A DNA stretch of 64,000 nt from a virus. Made by a program: the position numbers and the translations under genes. The stretch lies in the IMG/VR virus record IMGVR_UViG_3300026189_000002, positions 1 to 64,000 of that record. One strand, 5' to 3'. The notes beneath the pieces are model-generated. The model saw nothing but the letters and a program-made list of their open reading frames with translations, was not told the DNA's origin and made no database searches. Positions 29,612 to 63,301 of the stretch are shown here, piece after piece (position 1 is the first letter of the stretch; every line of letters begins with the position of its first letter).

Positions 29612-29849
29612 AATTATAGTACATTCAAAAAAAATAAACATAACATGTGAGGTTTGTAATTTCGTAGCAAGAGATTATGAGGACATAGAATGTATTGAAA
29701 AAAATGGGTCTTGTACAGAGTGCTATGGAAACTTTGCATTTAATGATATGGAAGCATGGTTAGCAAACAAAAAACCTTCATCAGAACTTGCGAGAAAGAA
29801 GATGGGGATTCATAATTATAAAACAGTCGACGATGGAGGACTTAAATGA
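29595..29849 (+). CDS. Small Cys-rich (putative zinc-binding) hypothetical protein
   Basis: CEVC...CTEC pairs. Overlaps both neighbours. Confidence 0.55.
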   Translation: MFQSSRIIVHSKKINITCEVCNFVARDYEDIECIEKNGSCTECYGNFAFNDMEAWLANKKPSSELARKKMGIHNYKTVDDGGLK

Positions 29850-31862: not shown

Positions 31863-33788
31863 ATGGCAGATAGAGCAAGTCTTTTTAATAGGCTGACTAA
31901 ATTATTTAGATCAGGTCCTGTCATAAAAAGAAAAGTAAGAAATATAGACGCTAGAAATTCTGCCTCTACGGCTGTAGAAGTTTTTAGGAAGGCGCACAGC
32001 GATGTATATAATAGCACGCTTTCTTCCTACGGCGCTTTTGATAGAATGTCTAGATACAGCGATTTCAGTGAAATGGAATCTACACCAGAAATATCTTCTG
32101 CTTTAGACATATACGCCGAAGAAACAGTTTCATCTGACGAACACGGCAGAGTTCTTCATATACACTCCGACAATGCAAAAATAAAAGAAATACTAGACAA
32201 TCTTTTTCACGATATATTAAATGTAGAATTTAATTTGCCAATGTGGACTCGTAATCTATGCAAGTATGGAGACTTCTTTTTATTTAATGACATTCATCCA
32301 GAATATGGAGTCATAAACGCTTATCCAATTTCTATTAGCGAAGTAGAAAGAGAAGAAGGGTTTGACCCTAGCGACCCTAGCGCAGTTAGGTTTAGGTGGA
32401 TTACTCAAGGTAATCAAATTTTAGAAAACTGGCAAATGTCTCACTTTAGGCTTTTAGGCAACGACGCTTTTTTGCCTTATGGAAATTCAGTATTAGAGTC
32501 TGCAAGAAGAATATGGCGCCAGCTAATATTAATAGAAGATGCTATGCTTGTGTACCGAGTTATTAGAGCGCCTGAAAGAAGAGTTTTCTATATTGACGTA
32601 GGTAATGTCCCCCCAGAAGACGTATCAAATTATTTAGAGCAAGCACAAACTAGCCTAAAAAGAAATCAAATAATTGACAAGTCTAATGGGCAAGTAGACT
32701 TAAGATATAATCCGCTTAGCGTAGATGAAGATTATTTTCTTCCAGTCAGAGGCGGAGATTCAGGAACAAGGATAGATACACTAGCAGGCGGCCAAAATAC
32801 TTCCGCAATAGAAGATGTTCAGTATATTCAAAAGAAGTTATTTGCTGCTTTAAAAATACCTAGAGCTTATCTAGGATATGATGAAGAAGTCGGAGCAAAG
32901 GCTACGCTTGCTCAAGAGGATATAAGGTTTAGCAGAGCAATACAAAGAATTCAGAAAGTTATTATTTCTGAGCTAAATAAGGTTGCTATGATACATCTTT
33001 ATTGTCATGGTTATGAAGGAGAAGATTTAGCAGACTTTAATTTAATGCTATCTAACCCTTCTTCTTTAGCTCAACAACAAAAATTAGAGCTTATTAGAGT
33101 CAGGTTTGAAATTGCAGGATCTGCACCAGAGGGTTCGGTTAGTAGAAAATGGGTTCAAAAAAATGTTATAGGACTTACTGACTCTGAAATAGAAAACATA
33201 AAACAAGACAAGATAGACGAAAAACTATCTGATTCAGAGCTAGAAAATGTTCAGGCTGAAGCTCCTGAAGGGGCTGACGAAGATACAGATACAGCAGCAG
33301 ACGAAGAGGCCGAGGAAGATCTTTTCGCTTCTGACAAAAAAGGCGGAGAGTTATTGACAGCTCAACCGCCAGAAGAAAATAATAAAAAATCTTCTAAAAA
33401 AGACGAAGAAGAAATTCCAAATATAAAACTATCCATTGATGACGAAGACGCTCCGATAAAAGCCCAGTCCGCGATAAGAAACGTTTTTGGAGGCGAACTA
33501 AATAAAAAAAGGACATCTAATGGACCTTCAAAAAATTCAATGCCCGATTTTTTAAAGATGACTTCTACTGGAAAGTCCGGACGCGGTCAAGATAGCTTAA
33601 ATAAGCCTTACGGAAATAAGAAGTTTGTGGATCCATTTTCTGAATCAAGCGATCAGTCAGAGATGCCAAAACTATCAATAGGACTAGTAAAAACTTTGAA
33701 TCACATGTCGAACAAAATAGGTATTAATAATAAGGCCTTACTTTCAGAGGCCGAAGACAAAAAGGGGGACCATAATGGCGAAGCATAA
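31863..33788 (+). CDS. gp20: Portal protein (T4 gp20-like)
   Basis: EDAMLVYRVIRAPERRVFYIDVGN, EDYFLP, TLAGGQN, KLFAALKIP. Follows terL. Confidence 0.95.
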   Translation: MADRASLFNRLTKLFRSGPVIKRKVRNIDARNSASTAVEVFRKAHSDVYNSTLSSYGAFDRMSRYSDFSEMESTPEISSALDIYAEETVSSDEHGRVLHIHSDNAKIKEILDNLFHDILNVEFNLPMWTRNLCKYGDFFLFNDIHPEYGVINAYPISISEVEREEGFDPSDPSAVRFRWITQGNQILENWQMSHFRLLGNDAFLPYGNSVLESARRIWRQLILIEDAMLVYRVIRAPERRVFYIDVGNVPPEDVSNYLEQAQTSLKRNQIIDKSNGQVDLRYNPLSVDEDYFLPVRGGDSGTRIDTLAGGQNTSAIEDVQYIQKKLFAALKIPRAYLGYDEEVGAKATLAQEDIRFSRAIQRIQKVIISELNKVAMIHLYCHGYEGEDLADFNLMLSNPSSLAQQQKLELIRVRFEIAGSAPEGSVSRKWVQKNVIGLTDSEIENIKQDKIDEKLSDSELENVQAEAPEGADEDTDTAADEEAEEDLFASDKKGGELLTAQPPEENNKKSSKKDEEEIPNIKLSIDDEDAPIKAQSAIRNVFGGELNKKRTSNGPSKNSMPDFLKMTSTGKSGRGQDSLNKPYGNKKFVDPFSESSDQSEMPKLSIGLVKTLNHMSNKIGINNKALLSEAEDKKGDHNGEA

Positions 33789-34599
33789 CAAGAAGCGCAA
33801 CGTCGGTCTGATTCATGAGCAGCTGATCAGAAAAATTAGCGAACATGTAGTCGATAAGGACCAAGATAATATTGACAAAATTTTCAATATAATAGAAAAC
33901 AATTTCGTTAAAGGGAGCGAACTTTATAAAGAATTTAGGTTGTTCAATTCATTAGTTCACTCTAGAGTCGGATCTAAAGAAATTGCTTCTAAAATATTAG
34001 AAGAGAGTAAGTCAGCTGCTAAAAAACACAATATAAGCAAAATTGATCAGGAAAAATCAAAGTTGATAAAAGAGATCAATCACAACCTAGATGGAAAAGA
34101 TCTGTACTCAACTCGAGTTGAAACATATAAGGTTTTTTCTACCGTTCAAGCTTTACTTAATGAATGGAGAGGGCACGGAAATCTTTTTCCTGAAGAAATA
34201 GTAAAATACGAAAGCCTTTTAGAAAATTGGCTTTGTAGAGGTAAAGAGGAAAATCAGAACAGCAATAAAGTCGGAGATCCTCTTGTTTTAAAAATGATGA
34301 TACAAAAGTTTAATGAAAAGTATGAAGGAAACCTAAACAATATGCAGCGTTCCTTAATTGCTTCGAAGTTATCAGAAGATAATGAAAAAGTTTTAGAACA
34401 GGTCAGCACTATAAAAGAAGCAGGCCTGAAAAAAGTTAATGATTTTTATTCTAGCTGTGATAACAAGTTTTTGTTAGAGAAAAAAGAAGAAATTTTGTCT
34501 AGAATAGACAGTCTAGAGGTTTCTTCTTCTGATAAAATCATAGAAAGAGCTATGTCGTTAGCTAATCTTGTAGAAGAGCTGGAGAGTGAAGATGAGTAA
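33775..34599 (+). CDS. Hypothetical head-morphogenesis protein
   Basis: KHNKKRNVGLIHEQL N-terminus and FNEKY motif. Lies between portal and protease. Confidence 0.65.
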   Translation: MAKHNKKRNVGLIHEQLIRKISEHVVDKDQDNIDKIFNIIENNFVKGSELYKEFRLFNSLVHSRVGSKEIASKILEESKSAAKKHNISKIDQEKSKLIKEINHNLDGKDLYSTRVETYKVFSTVQALLNEWRGHGNLFPEEIVKYESLLENWLCRGKEENQNSNKVGDPLVLKMMIQKFNEKYEGNLNNMQRSLIASKLSEDNEKVLEQVSTIKEAGLKKVNDFYSSCDNKFLLEKKEEILSRIDSLEVSSSDKIIERAMSLANLVEELESEDE

Positions 34600-35203
34600 T
34601 AAAATGAAACTTTTAACCGAGTGGTTGCCTTTTGACTACTCTAAAGAAATGATAAAAGAGTCTAGAGATAACAACGACGGAAAAATAGTAATGAAGGGTA
34701 TTCTTCAAAAAGCAGATACGTTAAATCAAAACGGAAGAATATATCCGGAGCCTATTTTAGAAAGAGAAGTAAGAAATTACCAAAAGTTTATCGAAGAATC
34801 AAGAGCGCTAGGAGAATGCGATCACCCAGATAGCAGCGTCGTTGAACTAAAGAACGCTTCTCATATAGTAAGAGAAGCTTACATGCAAGAAGGTGTATGT
34901 TACGGAACCGTAGAATTGCTTGATACTCCAAGCGGTAAAATACTTCAAAGCTTAGTAGAGTCTGGAGTTACTCTTGGTATCTCCAGCAGAGGCGTAGGGT
35001 CAACAAGAAGAGACGGCGACTACGATGTAGTTCAAGATGATTTTCAGCTTATTTGCTGGGATTTTGTTTCAGAGCCTTCTACGCCTGGAGCATTTATGAT
35101 GAAAGAGGGAAGAGAGATTTCTAGAAGAGATCTAAACAACCACTTTAATAAAACAGATAGAATAAATAGGGCTATGAACGAAATCATAGCTTGGGAGGAT
35201 TAA
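34592..35203 (+). CDS. gp21: Prohead core protease (T4 gp21-like)
   Basis: GILQKADTLNQNGRIYP, GECDHP, SHIV, GISSRGVGS, WDFVSEPST. ATG at 34592 follows SD GGAGAG. Confidence 0.93.
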   Translation: MSNKMKLLTEWLPFDYSKEMIKESRDNNDGKIVMKGILQKADTLNQNGRIYPEPILEREVRNYQKFIEESRALGECDHPDSSVVELKNASHIVREAYMQEGVCYGTVELLDTPSGKILQSLVESGVTLGISSRGVGSTRRDGDYDVVQDDFQLICWDFVSEPSTPGAFMMKEGREISRRDLNNHFNKTDRINRAMNEIIAWED

Positions 35204-39103: not shown

Positions 39104-39149
39104 TTTTTGCTCTCATTAACCATACTTAATGATAAACGCAGGTGGACCT

Positions 39150-40856
39150 ATGACGAAATCCTTATACGAAGACGCGTTAGCGGATGCAAAAGAGCTTAGA
39201 GAGTTAGCCGAAGAGGCTGCAAAGAAAAGCTTAATTGAATCTATAACGCCACAAATACGCGACTTAGTTAATAAAAGACTAATGGGCGAAGACATATCAA
39301 TGGATGACTTAAAAGATCTAGAAGCTCCTGAATCAGATGATGACAGAGCGGAAATGTCTTTTGACGACTTGCCTGATGAGCCTATGCCAGAAGAAATTGA
39401 TGGACCGGTCGTTAATATAGACGCCGCTGGCGACGTAAATATAGATTTATCAGGATCATCTGACGATGATGATGACGAACCCGTGTTAACTGCAGCCATG
39501 GCTGAAAACTTAATGAGGTTAATTAACGGACATCGAGTAAATGAATCTAGCGGTTTAGAAAAAAGATTTAACTTGCTAGAAGAAAGATTTAATAAGTTAA
39601 AAGACGTAATTTCCATTGTGTCTGGTAGATCTGTATCAAATGATAAATCAGCCAGAATTCATAAATCGTATTCCATGTGTGTTAAAGAGGCGCATAAAAT
39701 ACACAAACAACTAATACTTAAAGAACAAGCGACTCAAGGGGATCTTGAGCAAAGACTGACTATAATGATCAAGGAGATGAAAAACATGTCAAAGTCAAAC
39801 AGTCGCAACATCTTTGACTTCCTCTTCGAGGGTGAGGGCGTTGATGAAAGCGCAGAAGTAAATGAAGCAGCTGCAGCTGCAGCTGGTACTGCAGCACGGA
39901 TGGCTACCGGAATAGCCGGTCACTTGGTCGGCAAAGGCGCAAAAGCTGCTGCTGATAAAGTAACAAGCGAAGCCGATTTAGAAGAGGCTGAGCTTTCTTT
40001 AGAACTTTCTGATGAAGAAAGAGACGAATTAGCAGATGCTGAAGACTCTGCTGCTGTTGACGCAGCTTTAGAGGATATTCTAGGCGATCTTGAAGTTTCA
40101 ATGGAAGCTGGAGATGACGCCGGTGAAGAGCCTGCCGAAGAAGAAGCCGAAGAAGAGGCTGAAGAAGACGAAGATGAAGGCGACGACGAGGACGATGAAA
40201 TGGATCTTCCTGAGGGGTCTCACATGGAAGAGACTTATAACGAAGCCGATACAGTCTACGAAATTGACGAGAATATGCTTAGAGCCGCTCTTAGTAGCCT
40301 TAACGAAGAGGCTTCTGATGAGGCTGATCAGTTTGGCGGAGGCGAACTTGGAGATGAAATGTTCGTTGATGTTGATGAGGAAGACCTTATTAACGCCCTA
40401 GCTGATGAGCTTGGCTCTGTTTCTGAGACTGGCGCTAGCGCTCCTGAGGTTGCTGCTGAGTCACGTTCATATAGAACAATGCGCAGAGAGCTAAACCAGG
40501 CGCACTTGCAGTTAGAGAAATATGACAATACTGTTAGAGAGCTTAAGAAGCAGTTGGTCGAAATGAATCTTTTTAATGCCAAGCTTCTTTATGCTAACAA
40601 ACTAATGCAAAACAAAGATCTTACTCTAAAGCAACAGAAGACGATTGTTGAAGCACTAGACAATGCTCAGACAATAAGCGAGGCTAAGCTTCTCTTTAAG
40701 ACTCTATCAGAGTCGTTGAGAAGAAAAAAGGGAACTAAGAATCTTCAGGAATCAAAAATCTTGGGTTCTTCATCAAAGGTTACCAAGTCCGGACAAGCTC
40801 AAAAAGTGAATCCAGAAGGCGCTCGTTGGGCAGTTCTTGCTGGAATTAAATCATAA
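39150..40856 (+). CDS. Prohead core scaffolding protein (gp22-like position and function)
   Basis: MTKSLYEDALADAKELRE N-terminus after SD GGTGGA, a long acidic region, and C-terminal EMNLFNAKLLYANKL...RWAVLAGI. Directly precedes the capsid gene. Confidence 0.8.
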   Translation: MTKSLYEDALADAKELRELAEEAAKKSLIESITPQIRDLVNKRLMGEDISMDDLKDLEAPESDDDRAEMSFDDLPDEPMPEEIDGPVVNIDAAGDVNIDLSGSSDDDDDEPVLTAAMAENLMRLINGHRVNESSGLEKRFNLLEERFNKLKDVISIVSGRSVSNDKSARIHKSYSMCVKEAHKIHKQLILKEQATQGDLEQRLTIMIKEMKNMSKSNSRNIFDFLFEGEGVDESAEVNEAAAAAAGTAARMATGIAGHLVGKGAKAAADKVTSEADLEEAELSLELSDEERDELADAEDSAAVDAALEDILGDLEVSMEAGDDAGEEPAEEEAEEEAEEDEDEGDDEDDEMDLPEGSHMEETYNEADTVYEIDENMLRAALSSLNEEASDEADQFGGGELGDEMFVDVDEEDLINALADELGSVSETGASAPEVAAESRSYRTMRRELNQAHLQLEKYDNTVRELKKQLVEMNLFNAKLLYANKLMQNKDLTLKQQKTIVEALDNAQTISEAKLLFKTLSESLRRKKGTKNLQESKILGSSSKVTKSGQAQKVNPEGARWAVLAGIKS

Positions 40857-40867
40857 AAGGGGATAAG

Positions 40868-43351
40868 ATGTCTTTTACACTTGAGCAGCTTTCAGAGGGC
40901 ATCCGCGCTCGCCATCTAGGGGCTGAAAACAACAGATTAATTGAAAAATGGACCAAAACCGGTCTTTTACGCGGATTAAACGGTGTTAATCGAGAGTCTA
41001 TGGCTAGACTGCTTGAGAATCAGGCATCCCACGTTATTAAAGAGGCTTCTAGTCTTGGAAATGGTGGTAATGGTGCTTTAACAGCTTCTGGCGACATGAG
41101 AGGCTTCACTAATGTTGCTTTTCCTATCGTTAGAAGAGTATTTGGTGGCCTAATTGCAAATGATCTTGTTTCAATTCAGCCTATGAGTCTTCCTTCAGGA
41201 CTGCTCTTCTATCTTGACTACACAAGAGGCGGAGATCACGGCGTTGGAGATCCTATTAGCGGTCAGTCAAACTCAATATATGATAAAGGTTCTTCTTTAT
41301 ATAATAACCCAACGGGCTCTGCCATAAGAAAAGGTTCAAATGCAGTTGCTGGTCAATATGACCTTGCAGGAACTTCTTTTTCTAGAGCACACGGCAAGAG
41401 GTTGCTGGCTACTGCAGATATTGCAGCAGCTGGAACTGTTTTGGCTGACGGAACAATTGGTCGCGACATTGATGGCGATAACGGCGATAGAACAAAAACT
41501 TTGACAGCAACCGGAGCTGATGCACTTCTCCTTGATTTTGATCAGCAGGTTCTAGACACTGTTGCCGCTGGTGATAGTCATGCATCAGGTTCAAATCCAT
41601 TCTCCTTGCTCTGTGTTAAAACAGAGAACATGACGGATTTAGATCCAACCGCTATCAAGGGCGTTGCGCTACTAGCAAACTCTGGCTCTGCTGAGGGTAT
41701 TGGCGGCGGCGGTGGTCCTGCCTCTGCTACTGTTACAGTTTTAGCTGATTCGTTTGGCGATGCATTTGGAAATGGAAACGAATTAACTATAGGCATAGTT
41801 CTTCCTGCTGCTTTTGTTTCTCCTGAGGCTGGACAAAATGCCGCCGTTCCTGCAGCTCAGACCACAATAAGCGTAATCATTCAAGACTTCGGCGAATTAG
41901 GACCTGGTAATCCTGCACAGAATGCAATACACGTTGATTCTGCCGGAACAGCTAATATTAATGAAGTTGCAACACTTATAGCTAGTGCGCTTAACGGTAC
42001 AGAAGATGCTGCTATTGCTACAAATATAGCAGCTGCTCTAGCAAGTGGCGATGACGACATTGCAGATGGCCCAATTTTTGGTATTACGGCATCTGTGGAT
42101 GGTGCTGTTGTTACAATCTCTCAAGCTCGCGACGGAGATGAACATGCGGTTGGATTAACTGCTGCAGGCCAAGCTCACGATCAAGCTGCTCAAGTAACCC
42201 TAGGCGGTCTAGTCAACGGAAATCTTTCTGGTGGCGTTGATGATGGTACTCCTGTACACCTCAAGGTTGTTGGAAATGACTCAAAGGGTAATCCTTTCCA
42301 AGAGGGTGCTGGTTTGGTTAACATCAGAAGACTAAATGTTCTTGGTACAATGTCGGGCGGCGTCTTTACAGAGAATCCTTTCGCTGACGTAAAAAATGCA
42401 GCTACAGCAATCAGAATGGTTGTTGCAGGCGCTATACCAACAGAGACAATCGAAAAGGCAGAGCTCGATACTTCAGGTTCACTAGTTTACCCTAGAGCTT
42501 CGCAGCTTTCTACAGGAAACGGAGACACTCTAGTTGTTCCTTCTTTTGAGTCTGACTTTAACGGTGCAAACCCGCAGCCTTCAATCCCTGAGATTGACAT
42601 AAAGGTTGAGGCTGTTCCAGTTGTTGCTGAGACTAGAAAGCTAAGAGCAAGATGGTCTCCTGAATTAGCGCAGGACCTTAACGCTTATCACAGCCTAGAT
42701 GCAGAGGTTGAGTTGACTCAGATTCTATCTGAGCAGATTGCCCTAGAGATCGATAGAGAAATTCTCAGCGATCTTTTGACCGGCGCTTCTGCAGCAAACT
42801 TCTTCTGGTCAAGAGCTCCAGGTAAGTTTGTTAACAAGGAAACGGCTGAGGATGGCCCAGCGACCGCTAGCTTTACAGGTACGGTTCGTGAGTGGTATGA
42901 GACTCTAGTAGAGACGATCATAGACGTTGCCAATCAGATTCACAGAAAGACGCTAAGAGGTTCTGCGAACTTCATTGTCTGCGGACCTGATGTTGCGACG
43001 ATTTTAGAAGCTTCAGTTCTTTACAAGCCTAGCTACTCACTTGACGGTGACGGTCAGGTATCAGCGCCGATGGTTATTGGAGCTGATAGAGCAGGAACAT
43101 TGAGCAATAGATTTACAGTCTATAAGGACCCTTATTTCCCACGTAACAAGATCTTGGTCGGTTACAAGGGCGGAAGTTACTTAGAGACAGGTTTTGTATA
43201 CGCTCCTTATGTTCCACTTATCGTTACTCCTACAATCTTCCAGCCTGAAGACTTTACTCCTAGAAAGGGAGTGATGACTCGCTACGGTAAGAAGATGGTA
43301 AGAGCCGATTTTTACGGAACGGTTACTTGCTTGGATATGAATATCATCTAA
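40868..43351 (+). CDS. gp23: Major capsid protein paralog 1 (T4 gp23-like, large insertion, 827 aa)
   Basis: KWTKTGLL, AFPIVRRVF, LVSIQPMSLPSGLLFYLD, TRKLRARWSPELAQDLNAYH, EIDREIL, YAPYVPL, FTPRKGVMTRYG. Confidence 0.95.
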   Translation: MSFTLEQLSEGIRARHLGAENNRLIEKWTKTGLLRGLNGVNRESMARLLENQASHVIKEASSLGNGGNGALTASGDMRGFTNVAFPIVRRVFGGLIANDLVSIQPMSLPSGLLFYLDYTRGGDHGVGDPISGQSNSIYDKGSSLYNNPTGSAIRKGSNAVAGQYDLAGTSFSRAHGKRLLATADIAAAGTVLADGTIGRDIDGDNGDRTKTLTATGADALLLDFDQQVLDTVAAGDSHASGSNPFSLLCVKTENMTDLDPTAIKGVALLANSGSAEGIGGGGGPASATVTVLADSFGDAFGNGNELTIGIVLPAAFVSPEAGQNAAVPAAQTTISVIIQDFGELGPGNPAQNAIHVDSAGTANINEVATLIASALNGTEDAAIATNIAAALASGDDDIADGPIFGITASVDGAVVTISQARDGDEHAVGLTAAGQAHDQAAQVTLGGLVNGNLSGGVDDGTPVHLKVVGNDSKGNPFQEGAGLVNIRRLNVLGTMSGGVFTENPFADVKNAATAIRMVVAGAIPTETIEKAELDTSGSLVYPRASQLSTGNGDTLVVPSFESDFNGANPQPSIPEIDIKVEAVPVVAETRKLRARWSPELAQDLNAYHSLDAEVELTQILSEQIALEIDREILSDLLTGASAANFFWSRAPGKFVNKETAEDGPATASFTGTVREWYETLVETIIDVANQIHRKTLRGSANFIVCGPDVATILEASVLYKPSYSLDGDGQVSAPMVIGADRAGTLSNRFTVYKDPYFPRNKILVGYKGGSYLETGFVYAPYVPLIVTPTIFQPEDFTPRKGVMTRYGKKMVRADFYGTVTCLDMNII

Positions 43352-43371
43352 GCTTTTAGCTAGCGAAAATT

Positions 43372-43400
43372 AAAAGGGACCTTTTTGGTCCCTTTTTTTT
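43372..43400 (+). terminator. Rho-independent terminator after capsid gene 1
   Basis: AAAAGGGACC-TTTTT-GGTCCCTTTT hairpin followed by a T run. Confidence 0.9.
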
Positions 43401-43433
43401 ATTTTTAGTTTTTTCATAATACATTTTAACAAT

Positions 43434-43440
43434 ATACTTA
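43434..43440 (+). promoter_or_regulatory. Candidate late promoter motif ATACTTA for capsid gene 2
   Basis: The same heptamer lies before the scaffold gene (39122) and sheath 1 (49796). It sits just after the terminator. Confidence 0.5.
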
Positions 43441-43703
43441 GTTAAGTGGATATAAGCTGCAAATGGAGGCCATTAATGGATCCAGCGGCGAAAGATTTTT
43501 AAAAGAGGATCAACTCACAATAGTTGTCCAAGAAGTTAATACAGATTGAATTCCCGGCCTTCTGTGTTTGTTTAGTATGGGAATGGTAAGTTCTGTTATC
43601 TAACAGATCGCTCCGGCTGACGCCTAATGGTTGCGATGAAGATTTTGGGGCTTTCCGATTTTGTTCGAATGATGACATAATATATTTTTTAAGGAGTAAT
43701 AAA

Positions 43704-45677
43704 ATGTCAAACTTTTCATTGGAGCAGTTGACGGAGGGCATTCGCCAGAGACATCTCGGTAGCCAGAACCGTCAGCTCGTAGATAAGTGGGCCAGAACCG
43801 GTCTACTTCGTGGTTTAGAAGGCACAGGCCGTGAAAACATGGCTCGCCTACTAGAAAACCAAGCTTCACAGGTTCTTCGTGAGGCTTCTAGTCTTGGTGA
43901 CGGCGGCAACGGCGCTCTATCTGCTTCTGGCGATATGCGCGGTTTTACCAACGTTGCTTTCCCTATTGTTCGCCGTGTTTTCGGTGGATTGATTGCAAAC
44001 GATCTTGTTTCAATTCAGCCTATGAGCCTTCCTTCAGGACTGCTCTTCTATCTAGATTATACATCAGGCGCTGCTCACGGAGTAAGCCCCGCTCATGCAG
44101 ACGGCAGAAAAGCTGCTGCAGTTAATCCAGAGGGATCTTCTCTTTACAATGGCCCTTCAGGAGCCGGCGTCAGAACAGGCTCAACAGCAATAGGCGGAAA
44201 ATATGACTTAGGCGGTTTAGCCCAGTCTCGTAACATGAGACTAAATGAAGATCTTGATTTCCTAGGAACCGATGGAGAACCTGCAGCTTCTAGAAACTTT
44301 GTTTTCTTGGCCAATAATCATGATCTACCGGTTATACCTAATGCAAATGATCCCGGTCCCGGAGTTGGAACTACTGGTTTAGCCGGTAGACTTCTTCAGT
44401 TTGATGCACAGACAATTGCTGATATTGAAGCTGGACAAGAAGTCAGCTTCTTGCTTATACCGTTTACGGAGCATAACTTCAAAGACTGCGATTCAACTAT
44501 GGTTAAAGAAATCATGGTAGTTGATGATTCAGATGATGCTTCTTTGACTTATTTTCAAGCAGTTCCTACAACTCGCCAAGGTGCTTCCAACGCCTTAAAC
44601 ATTATGAAGCTTAATCAGCTTGTTAAGGTTGAAGATTCACACGGCACTGCCAAGTTGGATGCTCCCAAGATCGCCGCAATGACTCCCGCACCTTTAGCTT
44701 CTGTTGGAGACGATGATGTATGCTTGTTGGTTGCATGCCATAATGACGGTGGTGCTCTTACTAATGCCGATATGAATGATGGTGCTGGCGGTAAGCTAGG
44801 TGTTGTATATCCAGTTGCATCATCCTTATCTGCTGAAGACGGATCAAGCATAGTTGTTCCTTCTTTCGAGTCAGACATGGATGCTTCTAATCCGCAGCCT
44901 ACAATCCCAGAGATTGACATCAAGGTTGAGGCCGTTCCAGTTGTTGCTGAGACTCGCAAGCTACGTGCACGTTGGTCACCAGAGCTCGCTCAGGATCTTA
45001 ACGCTTATCACAGCCTTGACGCTGAGGTTGAGTTGACCCAGATCCTTTCAGAGCAGATTGCTTTGGAAATCGACCGCGAGATCCTTAGTGATCTTCTTAC
45101 TGGCGCTTCTGCAGCAAACTTCTTCTGGTCAAGAGCTCCAGGTAAGTTTGTTAACAAAGAAACAGCAGCTAATGTAGTAAGTTCCGGAGTTCCTTCTTTT
45201 ACAGGAACTGTTCGTGAGTGGTATGAGACTCTCGTAGAAACAATCATTGACGTTGCTAATCAGATTCACCGCAAGACGCTTCGCGGTTCTGCAAACTTTA
45301 TCGTTTGCGGTCCGGACGTTGCAACAATTCTTGAGGCATCTGTTCTTTACAAGCCTTCTTACACCCTTGATGGTGACGGACAGGTTTCGCAGCCAATGGT
45401 TATCGGTGCAGACCGCGCTGGTACACTAAGTAACCGCTTCACTGTTTACAAGGATCCTTACTTCCCAAGAAATAAGATTCTTGTTGGTTACAAGGGCGGA
45501 AGCTACTTGGAGACTGGATTCGTCTATGCTCCTTACGTACCATTGATTGTCACACCTACAATCTTCCAGCCAGAGGATTTCACCCCACGTAAGGGTGTCA
45601 TGACTCGCTACGGCAAGAAGATGGTTCGTGCTGACTTCTACGGCACAGTCACTTGCTTGGATATGAACATTATTTAA
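43704..45677 (+). CDS. gp23: Major capsid protein paralog 2 (T4 gp23-like, 657 aa)
   Basis: Same gp23 motifs as paralog 1. SD AAGGAG. Strong CGT/CGC codon bias. Confidence 0.95.
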   Translation: MSNFSLEQLTEGIRQRHLGSQNRQLVDKWARTGLLRGLEGTGRENMARLLENQASQVLREASSLGDGGNGALSASGDMRGFTNVAFPIVRRVFGGLIANDLVSIQPMSLPSGLLFYLDYTSGAAHGVSPAHADGRKAAAVNPEGSSLYNGPSGAGVRTGSTAIGGKYDLGGLAQSRNMRLNEDLDFLGTDGEPAASRNFVFLANNHDLPVIPNANDPGPGVGTTGLAGRLLQFDAQTIADIEAGQEVSFLLIPFTEHNFKDCDSTMVKEIMVVDDSDDASLTYFQAVPTTRQGASNALNIMKLNQLVKVEDSHGTAKLDAPKIAAMTPAPLASVGDDDVCLLVACHNDGGALTNADMNDGAGGKLGVVYPVASSLSAEDGSSIVVPSFESDMDASNPQPTIPEIDIKVEAVPVVAETRKLRARWSPELAQDLNAYHSLDAEVELTQILSEQIALEIDREILSDLLTGASAANFFWSRAPGKFVNKETAANVVSSGVPSFTGTVREWYETLVETIIDVANQIHRKTLRGSANFIVCGPDVATILEASVLYKPSYTLDGDGQVSQPMVIGADRAGTLSNRFTVYKDPYFPRNKILVGYKGGSYLETGFVYAPYVPLIVTPTIFQPEDFTPRKGVMTRYGKKMVRADFYGTVTCLDMNII

Positions 45678-45701
45678 GTTCATTTCTAGCAATCGCTAAT
45701 C

Positions 45702-45735
45702 GGAGGGGTCGTTATTCGGCCCCTCCTTTTTTTTT
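45702..45735 (+). terminator. Rho-independent terminator after capsid gene 2
   Basis: GGAGGGGTCG-TTATT-CGGCCCCTCC hairpin followed by T9. Confidence 0.92.
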
Positions 45736-45791
45736 CTTATTTTTAAATCTGATATTTATACTTGTCTATTTTTCTGTTTGAGGTTTATACT

Positions 45792-46652: not shown

Positions 46653-46686
46653 TTTATGATCATATTTACTTTTATGGAACTGCAAC

Positions 46687-49835: not shown

Positions 49836-52800
49836 ATGGCTGAGCAGACATTCAGATCACCGGGATTTTTTGAAAGAGAACTTGATAGATCGGCACCGAC
49901 TGTCACACCTAACAACGCTGTACCAGCGGGTATAATAGGAACTTCTGAGAAGGGTCCGGCCTTCGTTCCAGTTACGGTTGGAAATAAAAACGATTTCAAA
50001 AATAAGTTTGGTAACAACAACATTTATAGATTTGGTCCATACGCGGCAGAAGCCATGTTTGGAAAAAACCAAAAGGCTATTACCTTTATCAGGGTTTTAG
50101 GTGCAGGTGCAAACGATAGTGTAACTGATATATCAAACACATTAACACAAGGAACAGTTAAAAACGCGGGCTTTGTTTTAAAAGGAAATGATGGCCACAG
50201 TGATGCCCATGTTCCTCCTAGAAGCAATTTAGGGGACCCGAACTCACCAACGCAGACGCTGGCTAACTTGGGCTCTAGAAAAATAGGTTCGATACAGTTC
50301 TTGACTGCTATACACAGCGTAAATGACGCAGAGCCCCAAGGATTTCCTATTTTTACAGATAATAGAAGTACTCCTATGAATGCATCTGTACCTGACGGCG
50401 TCGCTGACGGAGATGTCTCACTTCTTCGTGCAGTATTAATGACTCCAAGCGGTTCTACATTTTTAGTCGGCGATCACGACGCAGCTACAGCAGACGACTA
50501 CTTTGATACAGCTAGCACCGGTGACGTGAATCAGTTTAAGCTTCTTTTGACTTCTTCTTCCGGGGCTGGACTTGGATCTGATTTAAATGCAGGGTCTAGA
50601 CTGTTTGATATATCTTTAGACCCTAACGCTGACAACTATATTTCTAGAGTATTAAACACGAACCCTCTTAAGTTTCAAGAAGAGGAGCACTTACTTTACT
50701 TAGATTTTGCTGTAGAAAATGAAATTGCTCCAGTTAAAACCGGTGGTGGTGCAGCAAATAATAGAAACGGGTCAACAGTAGCTTTGCTGATGGGTTCTAA
50801 TAACAATACCGCAGCCGGCGGAATTAGCAATTCTCCATTTAGGGATCTCTTTGGAAGATATGATACCAGATATCAAACGGCTAGAACATCCGCATTTATA
50901 TCTCAGCCCTATGGATCCAAAGAATACGAGCTTTTTCATTTTGAAACAATAGACGACGGAGCATCTGCATCAGATGAATTTAAGGTATCTATAGCAAACT
51001 TGAGAGCGTCTAACGATGAATCTAATCCTTATGGAACTTTTGAGGTTCAAATAAGGTCTTTTTCTGATTCAGACAAAGGACCAGAAATATTAGAGCGATA
51101 TCCTTTTTGTAACTTAAATCCATCTTCAGACGACTTCGTCGCAAAAAAGATTGGAGACTATAAAGCAAGATATGACTTTGATCAAGCTGATCCTGATGAG
51201 CGTAGAATAGTAGTAACAGGAAGATATCCCAATATGTCTTCTAGAGTAAGAATTGTAATCAACGAAGATGTATATAGTTCTGAAGTTCCAAGTAATGCTC
51301 TGCCTTTTGGCTTTAAAGGAATCCCGGTTTTAAGAACGTCGAATACTTTAACAGATAGGTCGGCTAATCCTTTACCAGGAGGAACAGCTGAAGCAGCAAC
51401 AGCTAGACTCGCTGCTCCTTCATCAGGAATAGAAGCTGACGAGTCGCCGTTAGCACTTCAGCACGCAGTAGTGCCACCTCTTCCGTTTACTTTTAAAGTA
51501 ACTAGAGGCGAACTTTCACAAGCAGCAGGCGCTGCTTATTTATTCACTGGTATGCCCAGCGATACAGAAAGAGTTGACAGTGCTTACTACTGGGGAGTTA
51601 AAACAACACGCCTCCCGCGCGCTGTAGACGTAGGTAGCGATGCAACTGCTGTTAGAAGATCGAATGAGAGTTCTATAATTAACCCGTTGGTTAGAGCATA
51701 TACTAAATTTCAAGGAATAGAAAAGCTTGATGTTTTAGTAACAGGCTCTTCTAACGTAGACGATTTTAATGATAATAAGTTTACATTGGCCAGAGTGGCT
51801 TTTTCACAAACTGGAACTGACTTAGGATCTATACAAACAGATTTTTCTGGTTCAGCTAGAGAGCACATGAAAGATGCTGCCTACATAAGAAACGGGGAAC
51901 CTAACACAGTAACTTATACAGTAAACGACATAGACGCGAATGGACGACTTAACGGCGCTGTAGATAAGACAGACCGGTTTACGATGGCTAGCCTTTTAGC
52001 TACCAGTTCAATTATATTTAATAGATTTTCTTCTTACGCAAAATTTACTAACATATTCTACGGCGGTTTTGACGGCGTTAACATCCTGGATAGAGACCAG
52101 ACGTTTTTTAGAGATAGAGCTCTATCTGCAGACTCTGACGGAAAAGCTAGAAAGGTAACTGGCGCTCCTGAAATAGTAGATAACGGCATAGCTGTTTCTA
52201 GTGCGACTGAAAATCCATTTGGATCAGGAAGAAAAAACAATTACGTCGCTTCTATTAATAGAGCGATCGATATCATGACTGACCCTACTGCTACTCGCGT
52301 TAATATACTCGCAATACCAGGAGTAAGAGAGCCCTTTGTTACTGATCACGCATTAGAAAAAACAAAGCAATACGGCCAAGCACTATACGTCATGGATAGC
52401 ATTCAGTACGATGAGCTAGGAAACAGGTTATACGACGACTCCGCCGCTCGCCCGGACGTAAGAGAGACATCAGAAAAATTTGAGGCTAGAGGACTAGACA
52501 ATAATTACGGAGCTACTTATTTTCCAGACGTTTTTATAAGCGACCAAGATAACAACCAAGTCGTAAAAATGCCATCTAGTATCCCAGCTCTGGCTACTCT
52601 ATCAAATACGGACGATTTAAGAGCACCGTGGTTTGCTCCTGCTGGTTTTGCTAGAGGGGCATTAGATTTTGTTGTCAACGTAGACGTAAGATTATCTTCA
52701 GAAGACAGAGACGTCTTATACGACTCTAGAATCAACCCAATTGCGGTTTTTCCAAGAGCAGGCTTCGTAATTTTTGGTCAAAAAACTCTGCAGCAAGCTA

Positions 52801-53126
52801 AATCTGCTCTAGATAGAGTTAACGTCAGAAGATTAATGGTAGAAGTAAAAAGAAAGATTGTAGGAATTGCCCTAAATCTTCTTTTTGAGCCTAACAATGG
52901 AACCACGAGAGCAACATTTATTTCTGAAGCAGCGAGCGCTTTAGCAAATATACAACTCGGTGCAGGCATAGAGTCATTTAATATTGTTATGGATGATTCA
53001 AATAATTCACAGGAGGACATAGATTCAAACCGCCTAAACGGTAGAATCGAAGTTGTTCCTACTCGTGCCGTAGAGTTTATAGCAATCGACTTTGTTATAA
53101 CAAATAGCGGCGTAGAGTTTAATTAA
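49836..53126 (+). CDS. gp18: Tail sheath protein paralog 1
   Basis: FRSPGFFERELD, KGPAFVP, GGFDG, PWFAPAG..RG, LY..RINPI, FGQKTL, RVNVRRL, FEPN, EFIAIDF. Confidence 0.93.
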   Translation: MAEQTFRSPGFFERELDRSAPTVTPNNAVPAGIIGTSEKGPAFVPVTVGNKNDFKNKFGNNNIYRFGPYAAEAMFGKNQKAITFIRVLGAGANDSVTDISNTLTQGTVKNAGFVLKGNDGHSDAHVPPRSNLGDPNSPTQTLANLGSRKIGSIQFLTAIHSVNDAEPQGFPIFTDNRSTPMNASVPDGVADGDVSLLRAVLMTPSGSTFLVGDHDAATADDYFDTASTGDVNQFKLLLTSSSGAGLGSDLNAGSRLFDISLDPNADNYISRVLNTNPLKFQEEEHLLYLDFAVENEIAPVKTGGGAANNRNGSTVALLMGSNNNTAAGGISNSPFRDLFGRYDTRYQTARTSAFISQPYGSKEYELFHFETIDDGASASDEFKVSIANLRASNDESNPYGTFEVQIRSFSDSDKGPEILERYPFCNLNPSSDDFVAKKIGDYKARYDFDQADPDERRIVVTGRYPNMSSRVRIVINEDVYSSEVPSNALPFGFKGIPVLRTSNTLTDRSANPLPGGTAEAATARLAAPSSGIEADESPLALQHAVVPPLPFTFKVTRGELSQAAGAAYLFTGMPSDTERVDSAYYWGVKTTRLPRAVDVGSDATAVRRSNESSIINPLVRAYTKFQGIEKLDVLVTGSSNVDDFNDNKFTLARVAFSQTGTDLGSIQTDFSGSAREHMKDAAYIRNGEPNTVTYTVNDIDANGRLNGAVDKTDRFTMASLLATSSIIFNRFSSYAKFTNIFYGGFDGVNILDRDQTFFRDRALSADSDGKARKVTGAPEIVDNGIAVSSATENPFGSGRKNNYVASINRAIDIMTDPTATRVNILAIPGVREPFVTDHALEKTKQYGQALYVMDSIQYDELGNRLYDDSAARPDVRETSEKFEARGLDNNYGATYFPDVFISDQDNNQVVKMPSSIPALATLSNTDDLRAPWFAPAGFARGALDFVVNVDVRLSSEDRDVLYDSRINPIAVFPRAGFVIFGQKTLQQAKSALDRVNVRRLMVEVKRKIVGIALNLLFEPNNGTTRATFISEAASALANIQLGAGIESFNIVMDDSNNSQEDIDSNRLNGRIEVVPTRAVEFIAIDFVITNSGVEFN

Positions 53127-53164
53127 AATAGTATTTAAGGAATGAGGATTTTAGGAGACACTAA

Positions 53165-56100
53165 ATGGCAGAGTTAACATTCAAGAGTCCAGGAGTAAGC
53201 ACAAGAGAGATAGACCATTCGGGTCCTACTCCACAATCACCCACGGGTGTACCGGCCGGAATTATAGGCCCCTCAGTTAGAGGGCCTGCATTTGTTCCAG
53301 TCACTGTCGCAACATTTCAGGACTTTGTTAACAAGTTCGGTAACGCTGATGGTAAAAAGTTTGGTCCTATAGCCATGAATGAGTGGTTAAACAATGCTGG
53401 ATCAGGAACTTATGTTAGAGTCTTAGGCGTTGGAGATGGAAAAAAGAGAAACGCTGATGGAACTGTAACAAACGCAGGCTTTGTTGTTGGATCTGATAAG
53501 CCGCAAGAAAACGGTTTGATAGGAAACAACGAGTATGCAGAAAGCGGAAGCGTTCCAGCAGTTACAGCTAAAGCCCACCTAGAAACAGCTGGAGTTGCTA
53601 GTGCTGAAGTAGACATAGACGTTGGTAATGCAGACAACGCCCGCTCAACTTTAACACTAGAGGATACAGAAGGCAATTCTTCTGAGTTTATGTTTGTTAA
53701 TTCTGAGTCTCCTCGGGTTGTATTAACTTCCGGTACAGCAATTCAGGCCGACGACCCTATAGACGCTCTCGCCGGCGAGAATCCCGCAGCCGGGGATACA
53801 GCTCAAGCGAATGATGCAGGCCGTATTGCAATAGCTCCTATAGGAACAGGGGGATCTGCACCAACCGCATCTATAAGACTAAAGCAAAGCGATCCCGCAA
53901 GTTTAGACGCACTGGCGGTTGACGACGGATCTTCTTTCGACATTGATATACCAGCTGCTGCTCCAAGCTCGGTCTCTGGAACGCTTACTATTAAGTTTGT
54001 AGCTGAAGCCAGCGTTACTTTAGACCAAGCAACCGATGGCGAGTTGAATACAGTTATAATAGTAACAGACAAGGATGACGGAGCCGACGGCTCGGAAGAA
54101 AACGCATTAAGATTAATCAAAGCAATTTTAGAAGGAACTGACATTACCACGGTGCAGCGCGAAGATGGCGTTACTAATTTCGATAATGCTTCAGTTCTTT
54201 ACGCTTCTACAGGCGCTGTCGGTAGATTAGGACAAAACGATTACGGCCTAAGCGCTACGATAACAAGCCAAGTGCCTAACGGGGCCGGCGATGCAGTCGA
54301 GACTGGTGCTTCTATTGCAATTGCTTCTGTAGTAACCAGTACTTTGGCTCATAGAATAAGCATACAGACTGCGAATAACGACGCTGTACTGTCTATGGGG
54401 CCTGATGCTGCTGGATTACAAGCAGTAGAAGCCGCTGAAGCGACCACTCAAAACCTGGTTGGCGCTGTTATTACAAACGCAAACTTGCTAAGCGCAATAA
54501 AAGATGCTGTAAACGCTCAAGCCGGATTAAATATTACAGCCGGAAATGTAGACGGTAATGTCCTTCAGTTAGATCAAGACACTGCAGGCGACACTACAAC
54601 TGCAATCGGTCAGACTGGGACTTTCGATGGAGACGATACTTTGATTGTTGCCGGCGGAACAAAAGCTGCACCTGCAGAAAATGCAGCAAATCGATTTGGC
54701 GGTGGCGACGACGGAGTAGCTGCTGCAGATTTATACGCCGGAAGAACATACGTTTTAGGCGCATTTATGGTAGACGCCAACAGCAGCGGTCTGCTAGCTG
54801 ACGCTGGAATTACCAATAACGCCGGCGGAGGTGCCCCTGTAGCTCGTGGTATTTTAATGTGCCCAGCAGGCGTTATACCTTCAATAAAGTCTGTTAGAAA
54901 TTCAAATACGACCCCACAAGGAGTTCACACACAGGATTTAACAGCAGCCAATAGAAATCCAACCAATCACGATTCTCCTGGGTCTTACCCTAGGTTTGGA
55001 CCTAACTTTATGGCAGGAAATGAAGTAGGGGATTTAAATGATGATCTAACTACTTTTGACCTTTACCTTAACGGACTAAAGATTACGGGCAACGAATATA
55101 TTAACAGCCGCACTTTAAAAATCTCCTTTGATCCAGATCAGCCCTCTTATTTTGTTAACAAATTAAATACTGATCCAAGCAAGATCGAAGAGATGGGCCA
55201 CTATCTCTATATGCACTTTGATATAAGCAAGCAATTTGCAACAATTGAAAACAGCGACGGCGTCAATGCAAATGACGACAATTCTGGAAGGCATGCCGTT
55301 TTCTGTTTACCTACTCAACAGCTTAGGGATACAAGCGTACCAAGCGCTAACGACCTTATCGGTGTTCCTAACCTGGAGTCTTTTGAGGATAGATATTCAA
55401 CTGCAGTTTCACCTTTTGTTATATCTCAAAAGTTCGGTGGAAGAAATAGAGACCTGTTTAGGTTCCACGCTTTAGATGATGGCGCTGTTGGGGCTGGAGC
55501 TTATAAGATAACCATAGAAAATATAACATCCTCCAGATCGGGCGCTAATCCTTTTGGAAAATTTGACGTATTGGTAAGAAAGTTTGACGATACGGATAAA
55601 ACCCCGTTTGTTTTAGAAGCTTATAGGGGCGTCAATATCGACCCTTCATCGGATCGTTATATAGCAAAAGTCATAGGCGATACTCACGCCTATTACGATT
55701 TTGATAAGAGTGCCGCAAGTCAAAAACTAGTTATATCGGGAAGATATGATAACAACTCTTCTTATGTACGCGTAGAAGTTTCTGACGATTTACTAAACAA
55801 CAACATAGATAATACGGCTTTACCATTTGGGTTTCGAGGGTTAAACCACATGGTTTTTGACGGAACTGCTAAAGTAAATGCAAACGCAGGCGGAAATACC
55901 GGCTGTTCATCTATATTGGATCACGGTGATTGCGACACCGGTATCAAAGTAGACTTTCAGACTGTAAAGATGCCTCCTGTGCCTATGAGAGAAAGATTGT
56001 CGGTTGGAACAGGCGTAAAGAAATCACTGGATTCTGATTTAACGTGGGGAGTTCAGTTTGAAGTTAAACCTAATCCTGCCGAGCCTAATGCTGGAAAGAA

Positions 56101-57451: not shown

Positions 57452-57469
57452 TAGTTAAAAGGGTTATCT

Positions 57470-61465: not shown

Positions 61466-61551
61466 TCTACAAATGTATAATTGAAACGAAAAGTTTTTCT
61501 TTCAGTACATATTTAATATAGAGATACTCATTGAGTTAGGAGATTTACAAA

Positions 61552-62040
61552 ATGCCAAATACTTTACCAGTATCGGACATGCTGCCAAATAAGTTTGAGC
61601 CCAAAAGAAAGTTTAGATGGGTTTTTGCTATTGAAGGTATAGACGCTTTTCTTATGAAGACAGCAAACCGTCCGACTATAAATACTGAAGAGATTACAAT
61701 TCCTTACATGAACCACACAAGGTATGTAGCTGGAAAGACTACTTTTGATACAGTTTCAGTCACTCTTCACGACCCGATTGCTCCTTCAGGCGCACAGCAG
61801 GTTATGGAATGGGTAAGAACCCACTTTGAATCTGTTTCAGGTCGAGCTGGTTATGCTGATTTTTACAAGCGCGATTGTCAATTAAAGCTTCTTGATCCTG
61901 TTGGAACCGTTGTTGAACTATGGGACCTAAAAGGAACTTTTATAACAAGCGCCGGCTTTGGAGATTTAGATTACGGTGCTAGTGATCCTACCGAAATATC
62001 TCTAACGCTACGATTTGATAACTGTATACTCCAGTATTAA
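61552..62040 (+). CDS. gp19: Tail tube protein (T4 gp19-like)
   Basis: FEPKRKFRW, AGK, LHDPIAPSGAQQVMEW, KLLDPVGTVVELW.LKG, GDLDY. Confidence 0.93.
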   Translation: MPNTLPVSDMLPNKFEPKRKFRWVFAIEGIDAFLMKTANRPTINTEEITIPYMNHTRYVAGKTTFDTVSVTLHDPIAPSGAQQVMEWVRTHFESVSGRAGYADFYKRDCQLKLLDPVGTVVELWDLKGTFITSAGFGDLDYGASDPTEISLTLRFDNCILQY

Positions 62041-62986: not shown

Positions 62987-63023
62987 GGATAAAAACATAT
63001 TTTTAGAAGCCATATTTACCTTA

Positions 63024-63236
63024 ATGTATTATATGGGCTTTACATATAGAGAAGCTTATATGCTTCCTATATGGCAGAGAATATGGTTTATTAATAGAAT
63101 ATCTGAAGAGTTTAAGAGAGCAAACGAAAGGCAATCTCAAGCTTCAAGAGCTGCTCACGACAATACGCCCGACATGAGAGCCCTCCAGGGCAATTCCAGA
63201 AGCCATGTACCTTCTAGATTATCTAGGTTTACTTAA
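63024..63236 (+). CDS. T4 gp51-like small protein, probably the C-terminal extension of the upstream chaperone
   Basis: IFTLMYYMGFTYREAYMLPIWQRIWFINR pattern. The frame is open back to 62958 and there is no clear SD. Confidence 0.6.
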   Translation: MYYMGFTYREAYMLPIWQRIWFINRISEEFKRANERQSQASRAAHDNTPDMRALQGNSRSHVPSRLSRFT

Positions 63237-63301
63237 AATAATGTCTAAGGTGAACTTAGGCAATATAATAATTATTTCCATGAAGATTTTGGTAAAGTAA
63301 T

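Follow-up and report, generated by a model that had tools for sequence, protein, structure and literature searches.

Introduction

The shells of tailed phages are usually treated as one-protein lattices to which specialised vertex proteins or separate decoration proteins are added. In phage T4, hexons are made of gp23 and pentons of gp24, two proteins that are about 20% identical; processing removes 65 residues from gp23 and only 10 from gp24 (PMC9958956). Here we describe two adjacent gp23-type major capsid protein (MCP) genes, MCP1 and MCP2, in the first 64 kb (the window) of the 113-kb IMG/VR virus record IMGVR_UViG_3300026189_000002. The runs behind the record are marine metagenomes, and CheckV estimates its completeness at 34%. 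Like gp23 and gp24, MCP1 and MCP2 are adjacent gp23-family genes of the HK97 fold that arose by duplication, follow genes for portal, protease and (probable) scaffold, and encode predicted propeptides in the presence of a gp21-type protease. The T4 cores, however, have adapted to hexamer or pentamer, whereas MCP1 and MCP2 have mature cores with ~99% identity and differ in the insertion domain alone. The initial annotation of the window had contrasted the pair with the distantly similar T4 paralogues, and this contrast holds. Moreover, single-copy relatives in this family need no vertex paralogue, unlike T4. We put forward, as a proposition about evenly balanced between true and false, that MCP1 and MCP2 can occupy a common lattice, which would make the capsid surface a mosaic.

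Three other systems bear comparison. Mycobacterium phage Jabs encodes a 594-aa hexon protein (MCPh) followed by a 257-aa penton protein (MCPp) (bioRxiv 10.64898/2026.07.24.740622). Here too, two MCP genes of unequal length are adjacent, and the Jabs capsid is built without decoration proteins. In Jabs the two proteins differ in structure, each serving strictly in hexons or in pentons, whereas for the window pair such a split is only a candidate. In phages T3, T7, A2, A118, A500 and PSA, frameshifting yields two coat isoforms with one core that are mixed in the capsid (PMC5009743). These isoforms (10A/10B of T7 and T3; those of Lactobacillus phage A2 and of Listeria phages A118, A500 and PSA) resemble the pair in that some subunits carry an extra, often Ig-like, domain on a shared core. 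They come from one gene and differ by a C-terminal extension, whereas MCP1 and MCP2 are two complete open reading frames (ORFs), separated by 352 nt and a terminator, with their own starts and terminators and an internal difference in the insertion domain. Finally, T4 Hoc and other Ig-like capsid decorations are comparable to a module of MCP1 that varies between strains, is putatively Ig-like and would be displayed at the surface; Hoc binds hexamer centres as a protein of its own, whereas the MCP1 module is built into one capsid subunit and its Ig-like match is weak. By this comparison, T4 gp23/gp24 is the closest genetic analogue and the frameshift-derived coat isoforms are the closest functional analogues. 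Our literature search turned up no account of gp23 paralogues whose cores are identical.

Results

Two complete gp23-type genes

The features of the two genes are as follows.

40868..43351, + strand: MCP1, 827 aa, derived gp23-type major capsid paralogue (PF07068, 259.6 bits; phrog_138)
43704..45677, + strand: MCP2, 657 aa, gp23 major capsid gene of ancestral type (PF07068, 258.3 bits; phrog_138)
40868..41044, + strand: putative MCP1 propeptide, aa 1-59, ending I-K-E before A60 ((L/I)-x-E motif; gp21-type protease nearby)
41162..41214, + strand: two 26-nt tracts just 5' of the insert, identical to MCP2 44001-44053
41231..42481, + strand: MCP1 central insertion domain, aa 122-538 (family profile alignment to T4 gp23*; conserved motifs inside)
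41720..42223, + strand: MCP1-specific extra module, aa 285-452, hypervariable and weakly Ig-like (family comparison)
42482..43348, + strand: MCP1 C-terminal HK97 core, aa 539-827 (91% identical to MCP2 over 291 aa; PF07068 stretch 560-817)
42782..42837, + strand: 56-nt tract identical to MCP2 45102-45157, probably a short gene-conversion patch
42845..42871, + strand: small variable patch in the MCP1 core, aa 660-668 (MCP2 counterpart 45165-45197)
44070..44801, + strand: MCP2 central insertion domain, aa 123-366 (alignment)

Both genes score 258-260 bits against PF07068, for which the curated cut-off is 24.4 bits, and both match phrog_138, the major head protein; the two complete gp23-type genes of the initial annotation, at 40868-43351 and 43704-45677, are thus upheld. 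Among solved structures, the family profile finds those of T4 gp23 with an E-value of 6e-36. Both reading frames are intact, and each has its own ATG and an AAGGAG resembling a ribosome-binding site. Structure prediction with AlphaFold2 (AF2) gave poor models, with a predicted local distance difference test (pLDDT) of 49.6 for MCP1 and 63.6 for MCP2, in which the inserts and the small variable patch could not be placed in three dimensions. Residues 416-657 of the MCP2 model (pLDDT 63.6) superpose on the MCP of phage S6 (Z 10.2), T4 gp23 (Z 8.8) and HK97 (Z 8.3), and T4 gp23 gave the top Foldseek matches for this model. With the family score and portal/protease context of a gp23-type MCP in both genes and the HK97 core in the MCP2 model, the best reading is that both encode functional gp23-type major capsid proteins of the HK97 fold.

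Putative cleavage motifs lie at residues 57-60 of MCP1 (IKE/A) and 58-61 of MCP2 (LRE/A). An (L/I)-x-E followed by Ala is the type of site that the prohead protease of T4 cuts, so a gp21-type protease would remove a propeptide of ~60 aa from both proteins. With residues ~1-60 gone, the two would be even more alike than as precursors. Protein alignment of MCP1 and MCP2 revealed 66-73% identity in residues 1-60 and 93-100% in residues 61-120; the shared N- and C-terminal parts of the initial annotation are confirmed. The last 291 aa are 91% identical; past the first ~30 of these, the C-terminal ~290 aa are 100% identical except for one patch of 9-11 aa and two point differences. This patch (MCP1 aa 660-668) also varies family-wide and among MCP1 orthologues. 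Overall, ~99% of the mature cores and 98.7% of the strict core are identical, the latter with 1.3% of residues differing.

The shared core is old and under purifying selection

The DNA that encodes the core is only ~80% identical between MCP1 and MCP2, and about half of the identical residues are specified by different codons, so the pair stems neither from recent duplication nor from recent gene conversion. Codon identity at identical residues of the strict core is 0.51, against 0.43 expected at saturation. When the comparison is confined to the 246 core columns without variation in six sequences, the codon identity of MCP1 and MCP2 is 0.49, compared with 0.43 expected after shuffling of codons within amino-acid classes, and the two are no closer to each other than different phages are. 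Recent gene conversion was thus rejected as the main cause of core identity, since synonymous sites are near saturation, although short patches exist.

Similar tandem pairs are carried by two IMG/VR contigs of other samples, L004 (fully syntenic) and L077. Within pairs, residue divergence of the strict core is 1.3% in the window, 0.3% in L004 and 1.0% in L077. Across ~2,700 between-genome pairs at equal synonymous saturation, the median is 14% and the minimum 2%, a minimum that leaves aside L004_a versus L005 (1.3%), itself a paralogue-type comparison. These figures support very strong purifying selection on the core of both genes. In the core tree each pair is sister, with support by the Shimodaira-Hasegawa-like approximate likelihood ratio test of 99 for the window pair, 100 for the L077 pair and 100 for the L004 pair together with L005.

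Each pair contains identical DNA tracts longer than chance would give: 56 nt in the window (permutation p = 0.0006) and up to 107 nt in L077. The long tracts sit at different positions in the window, L004 and L077 pairs and therefore fit sporadic short patches of gene conversion rather than a conserved DNA element. Selection for DNA dissimilarity as a means to avoid recombination between the repeats is unsupported; codon identity is not below random, and long identical tracts persist. The simplest account is histone-like purifying selection on the core plus occasional conversion. According to Nei and colleagues, the paralogues of histone H4 and ubiquitin are reportedly held identical mainly by purifying selection, not by DNA homogenisation. 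Those families resemble the capsid pair in combining identical protein with saturated synonymous sites; the capsid pair differs from them in being frozen only in part, the remainder being among the fastest-evolving segments of the family.

Most relatives have a single capsid gene

The IMG/VR scans covered 119 loci, of which a few are the same contig fetched twice (L004 also as L092). All except L004 and L077 have a single MCP of 621-679 aa that aligns with MCP2 over its full length; in ~100 relatives, full-length identity to MCP2 is 56-67%. MCP1 is the longest of 82 family members, the others measuring 621-679 aa. Single copy therefore predominates among the relatives, and pairs were found in the window, L004 and L077. 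Because relatives carry a single MCP2-like gene, MCP2 is taken as the ancestral copy and MCP1 as derived. Near-complete relatives, of 288 kb (96% complete) and 318 kb (93% complete), have one Gp23-family gene and no gp24-like paralogue, which indicates that one gp23-type protein can build a whole shell.

MCP1 has orthologues in two ENA assemblies, P0003 (828 aa) and P0004 (824 aa), with cores 100% identical to that of MCP1. L005 is a syntenic, single-copy relative of L004; its core has a codon identity of 0.80 with L004_b and 0.52 with L004_a. Since the L005 core codons are near those of L004_b and not those of L004_a, the latter either predates the L004-L005 split or came from elsewhere. The phage collection contained no near-DNA match. 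The nearest isolates, Flavobacterium phage immuto and Microcystis phage Mel-JY01, and an uncultured huge phage are <50% identical and match in the core only. Members of the family are plentiful in marine metagenomes, and IMG/VR contains hundreds of such contigs.

These comparisons bear on a division of labour like that of T4 gp23/gp24 or Jabs MCPh/MCPp, in which hexons would be formed by one paralogue and the 11 pentons by the other, with the insertion domain and not the core deciding between them, at an early stage of vertex-protein evolution. Adjacent MCP paralogues divided in this way are known in T4 (PMC9958956) and Jabs, MCP2 occupies the gene-24 position after a terminator, and the bulky MCP1 module could be excluded from pentons, or from hexons. 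Proteins confined to hexons or to pentons are nevertheless expected to diverge in their cores over saturating time, as T4 gp23 and gp24 have done and as known vertex proteins generally show; MCP1 and MCP2 have not, their cores being ~99% identical despite saturated synonymous divergence. Both also keep a full gp23-like propeptide region of ~60 aa, whereas T4 gp24 loses only 10 residues, so that neither the core (98.7% identical) nor the propeptide has the character of a gp24-type vertex protein. MCP2 is orthologous to the sole MCP of single-copy relatives that need no vertex protein. The copies in the L004 and L077 pairs do not differ in size, and no core position consistently separates 'a' from 'b' copies across the three pairs. 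We therefore consider a hexon/penton split, the strongest of the alternative readings, unlikely, though it deserves to be taken seriously, and favour interchangeable subunits over a gp24-like vertex specialist because cores that stay identical over a long divergence imply the same lattice constraints.

The insertion domain varies and carries a module in MCP1

The family profile aligns to residues 17-73 and 129-413 of T4 gp23*, on either side of a variable centre. This centre therefore occupies the place of the T4 insertion domain (gp23* ~74-128). Motifs conserved in the family lie within it, including those noted initially (DLAG/DLGG, LLDFDQQ/LLQFDAQ, NIRRLN/NIMKLN and VYP), which are present in the alignment of an otherwise only loosely alignable region. 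Judged from these alignments, the central region is one enlarged, conserved insertion domain with hypervariable parts and not two unrelated inserts. By analogy to T4, the inserts probably face outward on the capsid surface.

Family-wide, identity is typically 37-45% in inserts compared with 80-90% in cores. The extremes are the tandem pairs and the L004/L005 trio, with cores 98.7-99.7% identical and inserts 26-40%. The nearest neighbours of inserts do not follow the lineages of the cores: the inserts of MCP2 and L004_b are each other's best match, that of L004_a comes closest to L009, and that of L005 to L018 and L030. In addition, the C-terminal core DNA of L004 (7114-7914) is 90-96% identical to that of L005 (5755-6555), compared with 72-75% in neighbouring genes, and the inserts are unalike. 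Because insert neighbours cross lineages and the L004_b/L005 core exceeds its flanks, segments appear to be exchanged by recombination in the conserved flanks, and the latter comparison suggests that the L004 and L005 lineages have recently exchanged part of this gene.

The extra length of MCP1 is a discrete module of ~170 aa (residues ~285-452) that is absent from all other family members. Among P0001, P0003 and P0004, the module is 33-74% identical, the bases of the insertion domain 90-100% and the cores 100%. The module alone has no Pfam hit. A search of 1.84 billion representative proteins returned two matches, the better one on Ig-like repeats of the HYDIN/VesB/ASH type; phmmer aligned the module to P0009 with an E-value of 1.2e-6, a weak match summed over 8 Ig-like repeats at 27-33% identity. 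Its AF2 model is below pLDDT 50, and structural neighbours in the Atlas reach template modelling (TM) scores of only 0.5-0.56. Together, the searches are suggestive of an Ig-like module, which may have an adhesive role.

A module shared with the tail-sheath paralogues of the window is unsupported: BLASTP found nothing at an E-value of 0.01, phmmer found nothing, and a hidden Markov model (HMM) of three sequences gave 7.9 bits to 57470-61465. An uncorrected BLAST hit of the module to 53165-57451 (26% over 202 aa) looks compositional. Sheath proteins are among the Atlas structural neighbours (TM ~0.5), which we regard as a lead only.

A terminator and a spacer separate the genes

The intergenic and downstream regions contain the following features.

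43352..43703, + strand: spacer between the genes, 352 nt, unique in the window
43372..43404, + strand: terminator-like hairpin (43372-43396; 10-bp stem, 5-nt loop) and T-run after MCP1
45702..45735, + strand: terminator-like hairpin (45702-45726; 10-bp stem, 8 GC pairs) and T-run after MCP2

The terminators initially assigned to both genes are borne out by these hairpins with T-runs. The promoter-like motif assigned to MCP2 is not: the sole and best candidate in the spacer is a sigma-70-like match at 43411-43438 with 9 of 12 positions, and such matches occur across the region at chance (15 found, 15.3 expected). An ATATTTA-like motif that recurs shortly 5' of several late structural genes (46653-46686, 45740-45761, 61466-61551 and 62987-63030) may be the late promoter element of the phage; between MCP1 and MCP2 it occurs only in imperfect form. 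Nor is there support for a structured RNA in the spacer, with no Rfam family above threshold and folding no better than that of shuffled sequences (z of 0.35 in the window and -1.21 in L004).

By blastn, the spacers of the window and L004 have no significant similarity, although a MAFFT alignment looked partly conserved; an argument from the spacers for a common origin of the two pairs was therefore dropped. The two spacers have in common a short block (CCGGC, loop, GCCUARUGG) with the potential for a small hairpin, at 43609-43632 of the window and ~5905-5930 of L004, which may be chance. The terminator hairpin at 43368-43405 is the sole match of several metagenome contigs in two unrelated runs, which continue into unrelated sequence on both sides; the hairpin thus seems to recur in other genomic contexts.

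Codon usage also distinguishes the genes. Arginine is encoded by CGN at a median of 88% in MCP cores of the family and at 84% in MCP2, which is typical. In MCP1 the value is 30%, the most extreme of the 82 members, and follows the AGA preference of the genome. Within MCP2, usage is split: no coding segments in the window resemble the genome less than the conserved ends, which use CGT/CGC for arginine, and the insert uses AGA and is genome-like. These patterns fit a long-standing, heavily expressed MCP2 and an MCP1 copy that may be under a different translational regime.

The two genes could then serve as alternatives, with mostly one expressed according to host or conditions and two virion types produced as bet-hedging. 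The terminator and 352-nt spacer between them would suit such use, as would the very different codon usage of the two cores and surface modules that differ between strains. Yet the spacer yielded no regulatory element, its promoter-like match being at chance and its sequence having neither an Rfam family nor unusual folding, and both genes lie on the same strand in one late structural block. Alternative use is accordingly improbable.

Independent data support the tandem and its maintenance

An 879-nt Logan contig from an unrelated run of another study (X5) covers 43136-44014 with 9 differences and includes the end of MCP1, the whole spacer and the start of MCP2. In run X6, a strain variant carries both MCP1 and MCP2. 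Its MCP2 contig starts in the spacer and spans 43576-44841 at 97% identity; over aa 95-357 there are 17 nonsynonymous and 15 synonymous codon changes, and 17 of the 17 nonsynonymous changes lie inside the insert. Its MCP1 fragments depart from the window exactly at 41720 and 42227 and then read P0004-type peptides. Contigs from RNA libraries (X15) align to 43676-43963 with 99-100% identity; being short, silent on MCP1 and possibly DNA carry-over, they were not used as evidence of expression.

The second copy could be redundant and heading for loss, either a neutral duplicate or an allele recently captured from a co-infecting strain, with no role of its own. Most relatives manage with a single gene, among them L005, a close relative of L004, and recombination in the gene is frequent, as the L004_b/L005 comparison illustrates (cores 90-96% identical in DNA, flanks 72-75%, inserts unalike). 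A copy without a role is, however, hard to reconcile with two intact reading frames, almost no amino-acid change in the core over a saturated synonymous distance, MCP1 orthologues kept in at least two further assemblies, and pairs in three lineages. We regard redundancy as very unlikely. Mis-assembly of two strains, which the estimated 34% completeness of this metagenome record and the 56-nt exact repeat common to both genes might have favoured, is scarcely credible, since the 3' end of MCP1, the whole spacer and the 5' end of MCP2 lie on one contig that another assembler produced from an independent run, a stitched join would require a spacer like one of the flanks whereas the spacer resembles neither, and two contigs from other samples show the same arrangement. 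The possibility of a chimeric assembly, raised when the pair was first annotated, therefore fails, because the tandem is present in independent data.

The head module and neighbouring genes

MCP1 and MCP2 belong to a T4-type head module on the + strand that consists of portal, gp21-type protease, small proteins, an acidic protein, MCP1 and MCP2, all within one late structural block on the same strand.

31863-33788, + strand: portal (phrog_213)
34586..35203, + strand: prohead protease of the T4 gp21 type (PF03420 Peptidase_S77, E 2.4e-23)
39129..40856, + strand: very acidic 575-aa protein directly 5' of MCP1, probable scaffold (composition and position)

Several small proteins after the protease have no family matches, and family searches with the 575-aa acidic protein gave no match. 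Its composition and its place between protease and MCP, as in T4, make it a probable scaffold. L004, L005 and L077 have syntenic homologues of this protein, 520-562 aa long, ahead of the MCP.

Two further long gaps, at 29612-29845 (234 nt) and 62987-63301 (315 nt), lie between ORFs of a structural block that is elsewhere closely packed. At 49836-62040, a tandem of three very large genes (1096, 1428 and 1331 aa) is followed by a gp19-like tail tube gene. Two of the three match Phage_sheath_1C, the third has no Pfam hit, and their mutual identity is 23-32%. In contrast to the capsid pair, the cores of these tandem genes have diverged.

Discussion

The initial annotation proposed that the two subunits are interchangeable in the lattice and give mosaic capsids or two capsid types, with a surface that depends on relative expression. 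This proposal is supported in part: our analysis confirms the same core, purifying selection and a real tandem, and the identical cores argue for equivalence in the lattice. A mosaic shell, with co-expression and co-assembly of MCP1 and MCP2, is what we infer, and its surface may depend on relative expression. Maintenance of MCP1 is supported by its orthologues in two other assemblies with 100% identical cores and by the X6 variant with both genes.

A mosaic shell could arise as follows. MCP2 is the ancestral capsid gene of this family of marine giant T4-like phages, and MCP1 is an extra copy, retained for long, in which the insertion domain has diverged and acquired a module of ~170 aa that is hypervariable between strains and probably Ig-like. 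Late in infection, both proteins would be produced and would join one prohead lattice on a common scaffold. The gp21-type protease would then remove the propeptide of ~60 aa and leave essentially the same lattice-forming core in both, so that differences between the processed proteins would be confined to a small loop and to the insertion domain, which would face outward. The result would be a mixed surface in which the ratio of subunits is set by transcription and translation, perhaps through the intergenic terminator.

Several considerations weigh against this scheme. The position of the predicted MCP2, at gene 24 and behind a terminator, would suit a low-copy vertex protein. Identical cores are also compatible with two alternative homotypic capsids. 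Given that its arginine usage is the least MCP-typical, MCP1 could be a minor or conditional component and not an equal partner. Finally, because the structure models are poor, outward exposure of the inserts rests on the position of the insertion domain in T4.

It is tempting to extend the mosaic reading to a broader, more doubtful and only tentative proposal. Some marine giant T4-like phages may naturally build mosaic capsids from two co-assembling subunits. Having to fit each other, the subunits would keep a common core that is more strictly frozen than in relatives with one gene, with occasional short conversion patches contributing, and the outward domains would diversify and be swapped between phages as cassettes. 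Such pairs would have arisen or been captured at least three times, maybe via unequal recombination between co-infecting strains that turned two alleles into two genes.

If the mosaic reading is true, a shell of two interchangeable subunits would be a third way of varying the exterior of the virion, beside vertex and decoration proteins, and a natural equivalent of engineered mosaic phage display. Such a shell would further provide a direct handle on which parts of an HK97-fold protein are constrained by the lattice and which are free at the surface. The pair may, moreover, be a snapshot of how a vertex protein like T4 gp24 begins. Given the abundance of the family, variability of the capsid surface may bear on host recognition, adhesion or the sensing of capsid proteins by hosts in the ocean.

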